Shown: piece after piece, positions 1,066 to 10,131 of the stretch
Numbering within the stretch: position 1 is the stretch's first letter
Layout: each line of letters starts with the position of its first letter
From: a virus
UHGV virus genome: UHGV-0046228
DNA: 11,963 bases
Direction: 5' to 3' (one strand)
Position numbers and translations under genes: made by a program
Notes under the pieces: generated by a model
Seen by the model: only the letters and a program-made list of their open reading frames with translations
Told to the model about the DNA's origin: nothing
The model's database searches: none

Positions 1066-1875
1066 TCATCTCGTTACTTTTGAGAGAATGGAATCAGCCA
1101 TAGACTCCTGTTTATGGCATTCGGCGACCAACTCCTCAAATAGCGGCTGAAGTTGCTCATATGCCGCCGTTTTCTTTATCTCCGCAACAGTATTAACGCC
1201 CTCAATTACCGTTGAGAACTTAAGCCTGGCGTAACCTCTACCACCGCAGCGGTCGCAGGCTTTCATTACTGGAACGCCCTGGCGATCGCTTTCTGCCTTG
1301 TCCAGCACCTTACCTTTGCCATGGCAGCGACACGAATTGCTGATAACGCCTTTTCCGTTACACGGCTTGCACTTAACTCGCACCACCTCACGCGCCTGTG
1401 TCCAGCTCTCCCAGTCGCTTGGGCGAACGGCACGCGACATTTTCGACCAGTAAGGCGGTTTCCCCCATGGGTATGAGACCTTGTTGGTAAACACTTGCGC
1501 CTCTGTAAATCCGCCACCATCACAGCAATCACATTTTCGAGTGCTGGCAGCACTTCTTGAATAATCCTGGTATGCAAAAGCGCAGAGAACCTTAAGCACG
1601 CCTGACCGAGCTGATTCATCGAGTTCAGACAGTGCTCTGAATTTACCTGATAACTTACGTGCCTGCTCATAGAGTCTCTCCAGTGCTATATCTGGGCTGC
1701 TAATGCCGATTTTCGAGAGGTAAAGATCGAAACCAAACCCGCACTTGTGGCCAGCAAGGCCAAGCGCCGCCATAACGTCAGTGCCGGTGAGACTGTCTGA
1801 TGCGGTTGCGCGAGGAGAGTCACTGAACATCGGTGATTTAGGCGCAAAGTATTTAGCGATTGATTCGAGGTTCAT
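1066..1875 (-). CDS. Late-gene antiterminator Q-like protein
   Basis: 269-aa ORF directly upstream of the late promoter/terminator and lysis genes and downstream of nin genes; C-terminal half carries paired Cys motifs (KCKPCNGKG...CRCHGKG, CDRCGGRG) typical of Zn-binding Q-family antiterminators. Family assignment is from recall. Confidence 0.7.
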   Translation of the reverse strand: MNLESIAKYFAPKSPMFSDSPRATASDSLTGTDVMAALGLAGHKCGFGFDLYLSKIGISSPDIALERLYEQARKLSGKFRALSELDESARSGVLKVLCAFAYQDYSRSAASTRKCDCCDGGGFTEAQVFTNKVSYPWGKPPYWSKMSRAVRPSDWESWTQAREVVRVKCKPCNGKGVISNSCRCHGKGKVLDKAESDRQGVPVMKACDRCGGRGYARLKFSTVIEGVNTVAEIKKTAAYEQLQPLFEELVAECHKQESMADSILSKVTR

Positions 1876-6569: not shown

Positions 6570-6865
6570 GCTGACACCCTCCCGTAAAACGCCAGTACAC
6601 GCTGCATCGCCGGACTGTTTCGGCACTCCTGAAATATTCCGTTGGTGCAGCTACGCGCGGTACCAGCCTGCTCTTCCGGCGTAGCCAGGCGATAAGTCAC
6701 CGTTCGCCAGACCTTGCTCACCCGGATAATTTTTCGAGACTTTTCCAGATCGATAGCGTTCTTCGTGATGCAGTTGATGGTCATGCCGCACTCTGTGGCC
6801 ACATCCTTCGCGGTGAAGGTCCGGTGCGTTTCGAGATAACGCAGAATTGCCTGCTTGCCTTTCAT
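6566..6865 (-). CDS. ren: Ren-like protein (lambda Ren, resistance to Rex exclusion)
   Basis: 99-aa translation MKGKQAILRYLETHRTFTAKDVA...KVWRTVTYRLATPEE...FQECRNSPAMQRVLAFYG is co-linear with lambda Ren as recalled; ATGA overlap with the P stop; sits directly after P as in lambda. Confidence 0.8.
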   Translation of the reverse strand: MKGKQAILRYLETHRTFTAKDVATECGMTINCITKNAIDLEKSRKIIRVSKVWRTVTYRLATPEEQAGTARSCTNGIFQECRNSPAMQRVLAFYGRVSA

Positions 6866-7656
6866 TGAATAAGCCCTCTCTCTTTCCCGCGCTGATACTC
6901 TTCCCAAAGCCATTGGGCCGGGGTGAGAGCGCCGAGAGTCGCCGCATTTGGCATGCACCCGAAGCTTTTTCCTTCCGGGTGATAACCGGCCTGACGGCTC
7001 ACGTGATTTGTCGGGATCACTTCATCAGAATTCTCGAGCGCCAGGACGGGGGATGGTATTTTTTCCCCACCAGCAACTTTCAGCGCCCATTCCTCAAGTT
7101 TTTTTGACGCGTATTTTTCAGTTTCAGCCTCGCTCAGCTGGCGCTGGTACATCGCTCTGCGCGTATCGGTCACAATCCAGTACATGACGTCATGAGACCA
7201 CGGGAAAGCTTCTGCTCCGCCGGTATGCAGCCCTTTTTCGCGGCTATACCGATGGAACTCATTCATCACATCAGCCAGGCCAATGCCAAGTACCGTGCCG
7301 CTATCCTTGCACCATTTGATGAATTGCCCCGGAGAAGGCCAGAAGGGTGATTCACTGGCGCGGGCATGCCGTACACCTGCGGAAAGTTGTTCGCGGGTGC
7401 GGATCCCATTCTCTGAAAACGCTGCGATCCACTGACGCTTTGCCGTTTTCTCGTCTGCGTCAGTTTTCAGGTTTGTCTGCGTAGACGCAGGGAAAATCTG
7501 CTTCAGCTGCCGAAAGAGAGAATCAACGAGGCTTTCCGCTTCGGGATTTATTACCTTCTGCTGGTCGGCGTTTCCGTTAGCCATTCTGGATAGCAGTGCC
7601 CCGTCACGCCCGTTAACTGCCTGCACAAGTTGGTTATTCACAGGAAGTCCTCCCAT
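6862..7656 (-). CDS. P: Replication protein P (DnaB helicase loader)
   Basis: 264 aa, co-linear with lambda P as recalled (FPAS, RRQWIAAFSENGIRTREQ, PFWPSPGQFIKWC, YWIVT); start overlaps the 3' end of the O-like gene. Confidence 0.9.
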   Translation of the reverse strand: MGGLPVNNQLVQAVNGRDGALLSRMANGNADQQKVINPEAESLVDSLFRQLKQIFPASTQTNLKTDADEKTAKRQWIAAFSENGIRTREQLSAGVRHARASESPFWPSPGQFIKWCKDSGTVLGIGLADVMNEFHRYSREKGLHTGGAEAFPWSHDVMYWIVTDTRRAMYQRQLSEAETEKYASKKLEEWALKVAGGEKIPSPVLALENSDEVIPTNHVSRQAGYHPEGKSFGCMPNAATLGALTPAQWLWEEYQRGKERGLIQ

Positions 7657-8372
7657 CCCTCGCGGCTGTTCCAGTGAGGCGTTTCCTGCTCAGCACGTCC
7701 ACGTTTAGCCAGCGGGTTAACCCTGGCATTCCGGATCCAGACTCTGAAAGCCGAATTCCAGTCGATTAGCTGCGTGCCACGGGAAAGGTGATAGTCCCGG
7801 AAGTTCAGCAGCTCAGTTTCAATGCTCACCCCCTTCTCGGCAGCCATAGCAATGTGATCTGCCGACGGCTTAAACAGGGGCGGGAATGGAATCTCCCCGT
7901 TTGGTGAAATCCCGATCCGCCGCTTAGCGGCTTCGCTCATAAAACCATCGCGCCCAGAGAGAGAGTTAGGTTCAGTGACTGGTTCAAAAGAGTGACTGGT
8001 TCTGGTGCCATCTGGTGGCACAGGGGGTGTGCAATCAGATGGCATAGGGTGTGCTTCTTCGTGGCATACCCCTGTGCAATTTAATGGCATAGGGGTGGCA
8101 TCTAATTTCAGGTAATACACATTTGACGTGTTACCTTTTCCGTTGTTGACGCCAACACGGTTCTCACGCCTGATAAGCCCCATTTCTTCAAGCGCATCAA
8201 TATGGTTACGAACAGCCGTTCTGCTGCATTCGCATTGGTCGGCGATATGTTGATACGAAGGCCAGCATTCGCCTTTATCGTTGGCGTTATCGGCCAACTT
8301 AATCAGGACGAGCTTACGCAGTGAGTTTCCCACTTTGACCCCCATTGCTTTCGCCATAAGTGACATGCTCAC
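7638..8372 (-). CDS. Replication initiator, O-like (N-terminal winged-HTH, ori iterons in the coding sequence, C-terminal P-interaction-like domain)
   Basis: 244-aa ORF; N-terminal HTH-like segment (SRTAVRNHIDALEEMGLIRRE); iteron repeats fall in a Pro/Thr-rich linker; followed by P. GTG at 8372 with GGAGGT 5 nt upstream, alternative ATG at 8366. Confidence 0.8.
   Translation of the reverse strand: MSMSLMAKAMGVKVGNSLRKLVLIKLADNANDKGECWPSYQHIADQCECSRTAVRNHIDALEEMGLIRRENRVGVNNGKGNTSNVYYLKLDATPMPLNCTGVCHEEAHPMPSDCTPPVPPDGTRTSHSFEPVTEPNSLSGRDGFMSEAAKRRIGISPNGEIPFPPLFKPSADHIAMAAEKGVSIETELLNFRDYHLSRGTQLIDWNSAFRVWIRNARVNPLAKRGRAEQETPHWNSREGWEDFL
8003..8100. repeat. Origin-of-replication iterons inside the O-like gene
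   Basis: Four related units spaced about 22 bp: TGGCACAGGGGGTGTGC, TGGCATAGGGTGTGC, TGGCATACCCCTGTGC, TGGCATAGGGGTGGCA, preceded by inverted repeat GTGCCA...TGGCAC and flanked by an AT-rich tract (8101-8130). Confidence 0.6.
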
Positions 8373-8389
8373 GTGCTACCTCCGGTTTG

Positions 8390-8418
8390 TTTACTCTCTT
8401 CGATTTACTTGGCATAAT
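8390..8418 (+). promoter_or_regulatory. Candidate promoter for an OOP-like antisense RNA
   Basis: Plus strand TTTACT (8390-8395), 17-nt spacer, CATAAT (8413-8418), in the intergenic region between the YdaT-like gene and the O-like gene, pointing opposite to them. Confidence 0.3.
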
Positions 8419-8423
8419 TGCCT

Positions 8424-8500
8424 CGCAATTGACTGACGTTTATTGCACCAGAAAGCTGTTGGTGTTCGAGCACCACAGCTTTCGCCATTTCTGTTGTTCT
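8424..8500 (+). ncRNA. Candidate OOP-like short antisense RNA (about 70 nt)
   Basis: Predicted start about 7 nt after CATAAT; ends at a 13-bp hairpin (GAAAGCTGTTGGTG / CACCACAGCTTTC, 8451-8483, one bulged T, 6-nt loop) followed by T-rich GCCATTTCTGTTGTTCTC, abutting the YdaT-like stop. Confidence 0.3.
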
Positions 8501-9042
8501 CACATAACCCCCAGCATCGATGTCACCATCGTCATCAGCGGCCCTACCTGCTCCGGCATGAGGCGAAACAATGACGCTATGCCCTCGCTTACCTCCTTCA
8601 TTTTCTGGTGCTCAGGCGCGTTCAGGAGAACGGCTTGCTTTGCTTCTGAACATTCCTTCATGGCAGATGCGATCAGCGACATGGTGTCGTTCTGCTGCGC
8701 CAGGCGTGTACGAAACTCAACAGGAAGAACAGACATGATTGCCGGGGTCAGTTCTCTAACGTTCTCGCGGTACTGATCGGAGTCGACGCGGTTATCCAGA
8801 AAGCGCAAAGGATTCTGGCGAGCCCTGCTGATGTCTTGCAGGAAGCTGACGGCGGTACCGCCCTGCTCCCGGTATTCGTTGATGATCAGCGCTGACACTA
8901 CGTCCTGATTGTCCAGGGACGACGACCATGCACGGACCGCATCGCGGATTTTGTCGTGACCTGGCTCCGCCTTAGGTTGAGCGCGGTTTATCATCGCTCC
9001 CGGGTGTATTCCGGTATTGTGTTGATACGCAAGTGAATGCAT
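8500..9042 (-). CDS. YdaT-like protein (Rac-type; occupies the CII position)
   Basis: 180-aa ORF downstream of the cro-like gene; segment IINEYREQGG...ELTPAIMSVLPVEFRTRL parallels E. coli YdaT as recalled; AAGGGA SD 5 nt upstream of ATG 9042..9040. Confidence 0.65.
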   Translation of the reverse strand: MHSLAYQHNTGIHPGAMINRAQPKAEPGHDKIRDAVRAWSSSLDNQDVVSALIINEYREQGGTAVSFLQDISRARQNPLRFLDNRVDSDQYRENVRELTPAIMSVLPVEFRTRLAQQNDTMSLIASAMKECSEAKQAVLLNAPEHQKMKEVSEGIASLFRLMPEQVGPLMTMVTSMLGVM

Positions 9043-9072: not shown

Positions 9073-9294
9073 TTAGGCGGCAAAGATACCTGGATATAGA
9101 ACTTCGCGAGGAAGTCCGGTTACTTCTTCGTATTTACGCATTTTTGTTACTGGAAGGCTGCCACCTCGCTTTTTAAGCATATTGATGGCCTGAGGCGTTA
9201 CGCCGACCTTTTCAGCAAGCACCTTTTGAGAGCCGCCCACTGCATTAATGGCTTTCTCAAGCGGGGTGCTGGCGTTGGATTTTTTGTTGATCAT
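9073..9294 (-). CDS. Cro-like DNA-binding protein (YdaS / Cro-CI HTH family)
   Basis: 73-aa ORF with HTH segment GGSQKVLAEKVGVTPQAINMLKKRG; divergent from the repressor gene; GGAGC SD 5 nt upstream. Confidence 0.8.
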   Translation of the reverse strand: MINKKSNASTPLEKAINAVGGSQKVLAEKVGVTPQAINMLKKRGGSLPVTKMRKYEEVTGLPREVLYPGIFAA

Positions 9295-9314: not shown

Positions 9315-9386
9315 AATCAACACCATGTTAATTCATGGCGTGGATTAAATCAACATTATGGTGATGGAAAAAATCCACATGTTGTT
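9315..9386. promoter_or_regulatory. Divergent operator/promoter region (OR-like) between cro-like and cI genes
   Basis: Three related sites: AATCAACAccaTGTTAATT (9315-9333), AATCAACAttaTGGTGAT (9348-9365), AATCCACAtgTTGTTT (9372-9387). Candidate pR on the minus strand: TTGATT (9353..9348), 17 nt, TAACAT (9330..9325), overlapping sites 2 and 1. Confidence 0.5.
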
Positions 9387-9411
9387 TACCATGCATGGAG
9401 CGGAGGGTTTT

Positions 9412-10131
9412 ATGAGCAGCATTTCTGAAAGAATTAAATTTTTACTGGCAAGGGAAGGCTTGAAGCAGCGGGATTTGGCTGAGGCTTTGTCGACTAGCCC
9501 ACAGACCGTCAACAACTGGATAAAAAGAGACGCGTTAAGTCGTGAGGCGGCGCAACAAATATCTGAAAAATTCGGTTATTCTCTTGACTGGTTATTAAAT
9601 GGAGAGGGTTCTCCAAAGAAGGATCTGGAGAGCAACATCCCGCCAGAGTCTGAGTGGGGAACTGTCGACGCTTGGGACAAAAATACCCCCCTACCTGACG
9701 ATGAGGTGGAAGTACCGTTTCTGAAGGATATCGAGTTTGCGTGTGGTGATGGGCGTGTTCATAGCGAAGATCATAACGGCTTTAAACTGAGGTTCTCCAA
9801 GGCAACGCTTCGCCGGGTAGGAGCTAACACAGATGGGTCTGGCGTTCTGTGTTTCCCGGCAACCGGTGACAGCATGGAGCCAATGATTCCAGATGGAACC
9901 ACTGTGGCTGTGGATACAAATAACAAACGCGTTGTCGATGGAAAACTTTACGCTATTGGACAAGGCGATGGTGGTGAAGGGCAACTAAAAAGAATTAAGC
10001 AGCTCTACAGGAAACCAGGCGGAAAGCTAATTATCCGCAGCTACAACAATGAGGCCTACCCTGATGAAGAAGCTGACATTGATGATGTTGAGATAATCGG
10101 CCGCCTCTTCTGGTACTCGGTATTGCTGTAG
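9412..10131 (+). CDS. CI-type prophage repressor (N-terminal HTH, C-terminal S24 LexA-like autopeptidase)
   Basis: Start at ATG 9412 (MSSISERIKF...) with GGAGG 5 nt upstream; HTH LKQRDLAEALSTSPQTVNNWIKR; S24 catalytic motifs GDSMEP (Ser) and LKRIK (Lys). Confidence 0.9.
   Translation: MSSISERIKFLLAREGLKQRDLAEALSTSPQTVNNWIKRDALSREAAQQISEKFGYSLDWLLNGEGSPKKDLESNIPPESEWGTVDAWDKNTPLPDDEVEVPFLKDIEFACGDGRVHSEDHNGFKLRFSKATLRRVGANTDGSGVLCFPATGDSMEPMIPDGTTVAVDTNNKRVVDGKLYAIGQGDGGEGQLKRIKQLYRKPGGKLIIRSYNNEAYPDEEADIDDVEIIGRLFWYSVLL

Follow-up and report, generated by a model that had tools for sequence, protein, structure and literature searches.

The prophage locus and its genes

The window analysed here is a stretch of 11,963 nucleotides of the virus genome UHGV-0046228 and has its origin in an E. 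coli lambdoid prophage; between positions 7600 and 9400 it is 98.8% identical to E. coli O19:H7 730V1. The genes of the early operon are encoded on the minus strand and include a Cro/YdaS-like gene (9073-9294), a gene in the cII position (8500-9042) whose product has a YdaT_toxin domain of the phi80 cII type and whose stop codon is TCA at 8500-8502 (TGA on the minus strand), a replication gene in the O position (7638-8372) with an HTH_36 domain and a weak DnaT domain, and a homologue of lambda P (6862-7656). The CI/S24 repressor gene (9358-10131) is encoded on the plus strand, divergent from the early operon. The domain calls agree with the labels YdaT-like and O-like that had previously been given to the genes on either side of the region of interest, and these labels are correct. 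The O-like gene has its ribosome-binding site, the Shine-Dalgarno sequence GGAGG, at 8379-8383.

Starting at position 8498 and going rightward, the window shares 98.3% identity with the immunity region of phi80. The O-like gene together with the entire intergenic region up to position 8495 matches Klebsiella phages at ~84.5%. Because the Klebsiella-type match ends at 8495 and the phi80 match starts at 8498, a mosaic joint, where the O-side module meets the phi80-type immunity module, can be placed at 8496-8498, at the cII-position stop codon, and the RNA element described below travels with the replication side.

Anatomy of the intergenic element

For the intergenic region the original prediction had proposed an antisense RNA resembling lambda OOP in position, orientation and size, read from a sigma70 promoter TTTACT-17-CATAAT, with a 13-bp hairpin about 30 nt downstream and a T-rich tract abutting the YdaT-like stop. 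All of these features are found on the plus strand. The -35 hexamer TTTACT (8390-8395) of this pO-like promoter is followed, after a spacer of 17 nt, by the -10 hexamer CATAAT (8413-8418), and a TG at 8410-8411 makes this an extended -10 element, TGgCATAAT (8410-8418). Transcription is predicted to start at G8425 (GCAAU), 7 nt past the -10, a position indicated both by the edge of homology to related phages and by the 5' end of the Salmonella RNA STnc1080. The predicted RNA folds into a 5' stem-loop, GCAAU...AUUGC (8425-8446), and a terminator hairpin of 13 bp with one bulged U (8451-8483), which begins 32 nt past the -10 and consists of a left arm (8451-8464), the loop UUCGAG (8465-8470) and a right arm (8471-8483). 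The hairpin is followed by the tail GCCAUUUCU (8484-8492), within which the 3' end is expected at ~8487-8492, giving an RNA of ~63-68 nt. The T-rich tract as a whole, GCCATTTCTGTTGTTC (8484-8499), reaches the YdaT-like stop codon.

The predicted RNA contains no ATG, as a check of its sequence showed, and we rejected a small protein as the product of the locus; the 30-codon 'hypothetical protein' annotated in RothC spans the variable loops and indels and was taken as spurious. LexA control has been reported for lambda pO. No LexA box of the form CTGT-N8-ACAG was seen by eye near the window promoter, the CTGT...ACAG of the stem being wrongly spaced.

The promoter matches 9 of the 12 consensus positions, and our promoter scan found 2 sites per 2.6 kb against 1.9 expected, which is the chance level. 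The tail GCCAUUUCU fails the consensus terminator rule in spite of the strong covarying hairpin that precedes it, and a consensus terminator scan gave no call at this hairpin because the spacer GCC(A) parts the stem from the T-run. With a promoter at chance level and a hairpin without a terminator call, the significance of the element rests on conservation and covariation; a case made from the window alone would be weak.

Distribution of the family

A blastn search with window positions 8373-8499 retrieved Klebsiella and Enterobacter relatives that carry the same O-like module and keep the window-type arrangement. It also retrieved, with different neighbours, mEp237, PHB10, SPN3UB, Gifsy-1, Gifsy-2, FSL SP-016, SEN34, SW-37, Citrobacter Omnitron and IdasGreatGrand, and, among 5426 complete E. 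coli genomes, prophage copies in 77. Where a phage has unrelated O and cII genes, the homology begins at window position 8424 (as in mEp237, Gifsy-1/2 and SPN3UB) or 8409 and ends at 8493-8499. These edges coincide with the predicted start or the -10 on one side and with the tail on the other, so the element behaves as a discrete, portable unit.

We further scanned the viral contigs of IMG/VR for the pattern GCACCNGAAAG-N18-28-CTTTCGCC, which leaves the inner stem unconstrained; one match (L119) was left out as a chance match. The pattern scan and the loci fetched earlier together gave at least 91 unique phage or prophage loci. The conservation of promoter and hairpin in related prophages, on which the original prediction had staked itself, is thus strongly positive. 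Among the loci listed, the element occurs in at least 12 O-side and at least 11 cII-side sequence contexts, in at least 26 combinations. In all annotated family members that we examined it lies between a cII-type and an O-type gene, and the families of these neighbours vary: phi80-type gene 15, 933W/Gifsy-type O, lambda-type O, YdaT-type, and D3/P22-type cII. The 80 loci fetched by way of the O-like protein were mostly distant, with other upstream regions, and yielded few and weak matches to the family model, which indicates that the family tracks the cII/O junction and not the O-like gene of the window. The RNA module is found near-unchanged in many heteroimmune lambdoid prophages, and two of them reside in one Salmonella cell.

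None of the 4227 models of Rfam 15 matches around the element, either at the gathering score or at E <= 10. At the lambda, phi80 and Gifsy loci nothing relevant was found in Rfam at E <= 0.1, the sole match being isrB in Gifsy-2. Rfam therefore has no model for OOP, M3 or STnc1080. A literature search with the hairpin sequence returned chance matches only. Judged by these sequence comparisons, the element is a copy of a widespread, uncurated family.

RNA structure, covariation and strand

The alignment used for structural analysis (A2) contains 43 distinct copies. The outer five pairs of the hairpin were fixed by the search pattern and are uninformative; the eight inner pairs were free to vary. 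The terminator helix is 99.8% paired across the 43 copies, with both-sided changes at 5 of its 13 pairs, for example C-G/U-A at columns 41-61, G-C/U-A/A-U at 45-58 and G-C/C-G at 46-57. For covariation the score is 0.231, compared with 0.094 ± 0.008 for shuffled alignments, none of which (0 of 500) reached the observed value, and sliding the partners by 1-3 columns lowers the pairing to 36-47%. Two types of stem can be distinguished, type A with the arms GCCGUUGGUG/CACCGCGGC and type B with GUCGGUUCUG/CAGACCGGC; the bulged U is common to both, and both are found in otherwise identical contexts. In the 5' helix, GCAA...UUGC, the pairs G-C, C-G, A-U and A-U are near-invariant in the 43 copies and the fifth pair is unconserved; since this helix hardly varies, covariation neither supports nor contradicts it. 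The consensus of the tail in the family is GCC(A/U)UUU(C/U), and GCCAUUUCUG is the commonest tail type.

Several features distinguish the two strands. In 37 of the 43 copies one pair of the plus-strand hairpin is a U·G wobble, which becomes a C·A mismatch on the opposite strand; for this reason the plus-strand hairpin is the stabler one in all 43 copies (mean -19.1 versus -15.2 kcal/mol). The A2 covariance model scores the window with 89.4 bits on the plus strand, over the full length, and with 20.3 bits on the minus strand. An 81-nt fold of the window has -26.9 kcal/mol on the plus strand (z = -3.7, with none of 200 shuffles as good) and -24.9 kcal/mol on the minus strand (z = -2.3). Folding and covariance analysis, one of the checks that had been suggested for the candidate, is thus in its favour.

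A competing explanation would assign the hairpin chiefly to the early minus-strand transcript, as a weak terminator, a processing site (for RNase III or otherwise) or a 3' stabiliser, and would regard the promoter as a relic of a translation start. The hairpin forms on the minus strand too (-17.7 kcal/mol), and on either strand the G+C-rich part of the stem has a proximal UUUC after it. However, the T-rich tail is solely on the plus side, and the wobble pairs, the uniformly weaker minus-strand hairpin and the less significant minus-strand fold all argue against this assignment. That the hairpin is not simply a terminator for the early transcript had been claimed before on the ground that the minus strand has no U-run. 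The latter point holds, as the hairpin is followed there by UGGUGCAAUAAACG, without a U-run, but the claim needs to be softened, as the proximal UUUC leaves room for a minor effect on the early transcript.

The promoter and its relation to pO

In all 35 upstream contexts with a detectable -10, one of the hexamers CATAAT, CATACT or CATTAT is located 30-34 nt from the hairpin anchor GCACC; at one further locus (L186) no -10 was detectable. The hexamer is preceded by TGn in 31 of these 35 contexts, and in most of them TTGAnn or TTTACn (e.g. TTGATA, TTGAAT, TTTACC) is found 17 nt upstream, the -35 being supplied in other family members by whichever O-side gene adjoins. Between the window and the Klebsiella RothC-type copies, 6 of the 17 spacer bases differ, while the 12 hexamer bases are all unchanged.

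For most members, translation of the O-side gene on the opposite strand starts at the CAT of the -10, with its ribosome-binding region in the bases that follow, so part of the conservation of the -10 region has another cause. This overlap, in which CAT and CCTC represent a minus-strand start codon and Shine-Dalgarno sequence, is what would be expected if the promoter were a relic of a translation start. Nevertheless, the -10 and its TG extension are kept over ~10 unrelated gene starts, and the second codon of the overlapping gene is always NCA, whether the encoded residue is Ser, Ala, Thr or Pro. The TG is therefore retained through codons that do not conserve the amino acid, as selection on the extended -10 TGn predicts. 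In EC09 a gene for a ClpX-type zinc-finger protein starts at the corresponding CAT. In the window the minus-strand ATG that overlaps the -10 opens a frame of 33 codons only, which is not the replication gene.

The extended -10 of the window is identical to that of P22 pO, TTGGCATAAT, and aligns with those of lambda, TGTCATAAT, and phi80, TGACATACT. By this sequence criterion, the window promoter is a homologue of pO.

A transcribed homologue in Salmonella

STnc1080, which is said to have been described originally by Kröger et al. in 2012, corresponds to the Gifsy-2 copy of the element. The Gifsy-2 table of S. Typhimurium D23580 in the supplement of Owen et al. 2020 (PMC7067206) lists cII at 1101725-1102099, STnc1080, of 62 nt, at 1102118-1102179 and the gene for replication protein O at 1102184-1103106, and over 17 conditions it gives TPM values of ~47-1750 for STnc1080 and of ~1 for cII and O. 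D23580 is colinear with the Gifsy-2 record NC_010393 with an offset of 1,094,126, which was checked at STM1010.1n, the CI gene's low-coordinate end, the stop of cII and the point 1100206, where the IsrB Rfam match ends. By this offset STnc1080 occupies NC_010393 7992-8053, within the region that blastn matches to the window (7983-8054, minus strand). Its high-coordinate end is equivalent to window G8425 and at the low-coordinate end it extends 4 nt past the stem; that is, the RNA starts 7-8 nt past the hexamer CATACT and ends just beyond the hairpin. The 62-nt annotation suggests that termination does occur there.

In strain 14028 STnc1080 is assigned to the '-' strand (Lévi-Meyrueis et al. 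2014); with cII and O on the '+' strand of the colinear record, STnc1080 is antisense to the early operon. This strand assignment comes from a single supplementary table, in which IsrB-2 is also placed on '-', whereas the Rfam isrB model matches the '+' strand of the Gifsy-2 record. Even so, with a promoter at one end and a hairpin at the other, STnc1080 can only be oriented antisense. The 14028 coordinates place IsrJ, IsrK, STnc1380, STnc2080 and STnc1160, which had been considered as the Gifsy copy, elsewhere in Gifsy-1. STnc1080 was listed among the ProQ-associated sRNAs as a prophage-encoded RNA with a likely role in the maintenance of lysogeny (Smirnov et al. 2017, PMC5391140). Owen et al. 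used the name OOP for prophage BTP1 only, and our literature search found no paper linking STnc1080 to OOP.

STnc1080 resembles the window RNA in sequence (78% identity over 73 nt by blastn), in its two-hairpin structure and in its location in the cII/O slot. The folds have the same architecture (-27.1 kcal/mol for the window and -26.4 kcal/mol for Gifsy-1), and the helices are co-aligned in A2. The differences concern the loop (ACCCCU in STnc1080, UUCGAG in the window), two positions of the stem (a C-G pair in place of U-A and a U·G wobble in place of U-A) and the tail (GCCUUUUU in STnc1080, GCCAUUUC in the window). In addition, the Gifsy promoter is located within O itself, and the RNA begins right next to the Shine-Dalgarno sequence of O, whereas in the window the promoter occupies intergenic sequence and 41 nt separate the O-like ribosome-binding site from the region paired by the RNA. 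The abundance of STnc1080 as an antisense RNA in lysogens, in which the early operon is silent, is a further argument against a hairpin that chiefly serves the early minus-strand transcript, a reading that we consider, on balance, very unlikely.

Equally small is the probability that we attach to the window prophage carrying a decayed, non-functional copy of an otherwise real family. It is true that the O-side gene that usually starts at the CAT is missing here, with only the 33-codon frame left, that the window tail has an A where Gifsy has a U, and that the RNA is 41 nt from the actual O-like ribosome-binding site. However, the copy matches the family model over its full length with 89.4 bits, and its -35, TG and -10 are intact and nearer to consensus than those of the expressed Gifsy copy (CATAAT versus CATACT). 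Moreover, its tail is of the commonest family type, and the same arrangement is found in the Enterobacter and Klebsiella relatives.

Relation to the oop RNAs of lambda, P22 and phi80

Lambda OOP is an RNA of 77 nt with the promoter pO and the terminator tO. The window RNA is similar to it in having a promoter at an O-side gene start (in the window no longer that of the replication gene), an orientation antisense to the pR transcript, a location at the cII/O junction, a short length, and two hairpins, one at the 5' end and one of the terminator type. The -10 regions can be aligned (TGTCATAAT in lambda against TGGCATAAT in the window), and some family members adjoin a lambda-like O start, ATGACAAA on the O strand. 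The bodies of the two RNAs have no detectable sequence similarity, and the covariance model of the family does not match lambda oop. They also differ in their 3' parts: lambda OOP overlaps 55 nt of the 3' end of cII (Hayes et al. 2012, PMC3349717), whereas the window RNA, with its hairpin extending to 8483 and its tail to ~8492, ends before the cII-position stop at 8500-8502 and has no coding overlap. Similarly, lambda tO has a canonical G+C stem with a U6 run, in contrast to the window tail GCCAUUUCU. RNase III-dependent repression of cII is known for lambda only (Krinke and Wulff, as cited in PMC3349717).

The oop RNA of P22 (63 nt) shares with the window the identical extended -10, TTGGCATAAT, but differs from it in the 5' hairpin and the lower stem; it overlaps ~42 nt of c1 and has a canonical U-rich tail, in contrast to the absence of a cII overlap and the non-canonical tail in the window. 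The family model finds P22 oop as a weak match in the right place and on the right strand (13.4 bits, E = 0.075). Closer connections come from mosaic copies. EC09 and SEN34 carry a P22-oop-like 5' part, GAAUUGAUCCAG, with the hairpin GAAUU...AAUUC, fused to a terminator of the window type; the apex of the type-B stem, CUG-UUCCCG-CAG, is that of the published P22 oop; and an Erwinia locus with a P22-like RNA scores 29.9 bits with the family model.

In phi80, the 60-nt M3 RNA, annotated as 'homolog of lambda oop RNA' (JX871397), occupies the same slot next to the same cII allele as the window RNA. Like the latter, it stops before the cII stop codon and has a two-hairpin layout, and its promoter TGaCATACT overlaps the start of gene 15. 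Unlike the window RNA, it has a different sequence, belongs to another replication module and ends in a canonical terminator; the family model matches it weakly, again in the right place and on the right strand (12.4 bits, E = 0.13). An overlap with cII is thus true of lambda and P22, absent in the window and in phi80 M3, and hence not a class-wide property.

Exchange of RNA bodies behind a common promoter is also seen in Scandinavium L005, in which the O-like gene and promoter of the window lead, immediately past the -10, into another RNA body that ends in a canonical terminator. A hybrid of lambda and P22 whose joint lies at -19 in pO has been described (Hayes et al. 2012, PMC3349717). The picture that these sequences present is one of a shared pO core behind which several RNA 'alleles' appear to have been swapped by recombination. 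Homology of the family to the classical oop RNAs is supported indirectly, through the mosaic copies (EC09, SEN34 and the type-B apex) and the shared promoter core.

That the element acts at the level of DNA, as a linker for module recombination or a palindromic protein-binding site with no RNA gene, is extremely improbable: mosaic joints do cluster at its edges (at 8496-8498 in the window, just past the -10 in Scandinavium L005, and at ~-16 in EC09), the lambda/P22 hybrid is reported to have its joint at -19 in pO, and both stem types occur in otherwise identical contexts, but pairing is kept rather than sequence (five compensatory positions, variable loops), unlike in protein-binding palindromes, the wobble pairs are strand-specific, the Salmonella transcript has matching ends, and a role as a linker would be compatible with a conserved RNA gene and is probably its by-product.

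Identity and possible mechanism of the window RNA

Taken together, positions 8390-8492 of the plus strand probably constitute a transcribed antisense sRNA gene of the OOP class that belongs to the STnc1080 family. We infer that it is transcribed in this prophage as well and that its 3' end falls within the range given above. The similarity to OOP in position, orientation and size that had been put forward originally is borne out by the cII/O slot, the plus-strand features, the predicted length and the pO-type promoter. The orientation opposite to the early operon follows from sequence, as the plus strand carries the promoter, the wobbles and the T-rich tail, opposite to the minus-strand genes cro, cII, O and P.

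The pO-type sigma-70 promoter TTTACT-17-TGgCATAAT would start the RNA at ~G8425, and the RNA would end a few bases into GCCAUUUCU, short of the cII-position stop codon. Termination might depend on the G+C-rich upper stem followed by UUUCGCCA/U, given a 3' end of STnc1080 located 8 nt past the upper stem; the GAAAG/CUUUC pairs would then form in the released RNA only. The RNA would be fully complementary to the early minus-strand transcript between the cII-position and O-position genes. Its presumed target is this transcript just past the cII-position gene's 3' end, with the O-like leader downstream of the paired stretch. By analogy with lambda OOP, the duplex of the RNA with the early transcript may be cut by RNase III, or the transcript may be otherwise destabilised or blocked. 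Cleavage would separate the cII-position and replication genes and lower the expression of one or both, and the outcome could be a tuning of the choice between lysis and lysogeny or a damping of leaky early expression in the lysogen.

We propose this RNase III/cII-O mechanism tentatively, as a possibility that, resting on the analogy with lambda, falls somewhat short of even. By the same analogy we infer that the window RNA may regulate cII. As it has no overlap with the cII coding region, the mode of action in lambda, by overlap with the 3' end of cII, is not directly transferable. In the window the paired region is 41 nt away from the Shine-Dalgarno sequence of the O-like gene, so that it is also unlikely to block translation directly. 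In most members of the family the RNA has its 5' end directly beside the Shine-Dalgarno sequence of O, which suggests an effect on the translation of O. The high level of STnc1080 in lysogens with the early operon off points to damping of leaky expression or to action on other phages, and not to the infection-time decision alone.

Implications for lambdoid prophages

Action on other phages would make the family a portable, constitutive RNA module that works in trans as well as in cis, the resident RNA pairing with the early transcript of any co-resident or incoming phage equipped with the same module. We regard this as unlikely. If it were true, the RNA would act as a brake on the replication genes with the help of ProQ, or as a means of cross-prophage interference that ignores repressor immunity, rather than as a cII switch of the lambda style.

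OOP is a textbook antisense RNA and has been treated as a feature of lambda and P22. The window RNA is of this known kind, its Salmonella member is already known to be made, and no new mechanism is involved. What the comparison adds is that in enterobacterial lambdoid prophages the cII/O junction commonly carries an 'oop allele' that can be exchanged for others, with the pO core in front common to all; the most widespread allele is the family of STnc1080, an abundant and uncharacterised sRNA of Salmonella. STnc1080 thereby gains an identity that is plausible and, in the cII-O intercistronic region, a target that can be tested, and the covarying alignment could seed a curated family and allow such RNA genes to be annotated in prophages.

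Mosaic structure around the RNA element

A sharp mosaic joint is located at window 8496–8498, where the cII-position gene has its stop codon. The sequence on the right is a phi80-type immunity region (98.3% identity), and on the left are the OOP-type RNA and the replication module, which are of the Klebsiella/Enterobacter type. An apparent further exchange is seen in Scandinavium hiltneri (locus L005), where the O-like gene and the promoter through the -10 hexamer are shared with the window but the transcribed part (~1384–1450, minus strand of the locus) differs in sequence from the RNA of the window. The terminal hairpin of this Scandinavium RNA body has a P22-type apex (CUGUUCCCGCAG) and is followed by a canonical U-rich tail. 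Compared with the window, the RNA body of this locus appears to have been exchanged naturally behind one and the same promoter.

Reading frames overlapping the element

On the minus strand, a 33-codon frame (window 8314–8415) begins with an ATG that is the CAT of the -10 hexamer read in reverse, and in a different reading frame it runs over the start of the O-like gene. The Shine-Dalgarno sequence GAGG at 8421–8424 belongs to this short frame itself. In E. coli EC09, the equivalent ATG opens a gene for a 69-aa ClpX-type zinc-finger protein (L094 998–1207), and the frame in the window is possibly a relic, or alternatively a coupled upstream reading frame. The annotation of Klebsiella phage RothC places a 30-codon "hypothetical protein" on the early-operon strand, across the RNA element (L003 3208–3300). 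This gene call is probably spurious because the loops are variable and indels occur across the RNA family.

Gifsy-2 records

In the Gifsy-2 record (L215 1493–1580, corresponding to NC_010393 5993–6080), the isrB model of Rfam hits the "+" strand with a score of 99.3 bits. Lévi-Meyrueis et al. 2014, in their sRNA table, place IsrB-2 on the "-" strand of the 14028 chromosome, which is colinear with the Gifsy-2 record, so the sources disagree on the strand assignment of IsrB. In the Gifsy-2 prophage of D23580, gene O (STMMW_10251) is annotated at 923 nt (supplement, PMC7067206), a length that is not divisible by three, and the distance from the O start to dnaC is ~61 nt shorter than in LT2 Gifsy-2. 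Together, these two observations suggest a deletion or a frameshift in the replication gene O of D23580 Gifsy-2.

Repeats within the O-like gene

The O-like gene (minus strand) contains three to four iteron-like repeats, TGTGCAAT..ATGGCATAGGG, spaced by ~22–45 nt (window 8004–8103) and overlapped by inverted repeats, together with a perfect 12-nt direct repeat, AGTGACTGGTTC, whose copies are found at 7974–7985 and 7991–8002. These repeats resemble an origin of replication lying inside the initiator gene, an arrangement like that in lambda O and phi80 gene 15.
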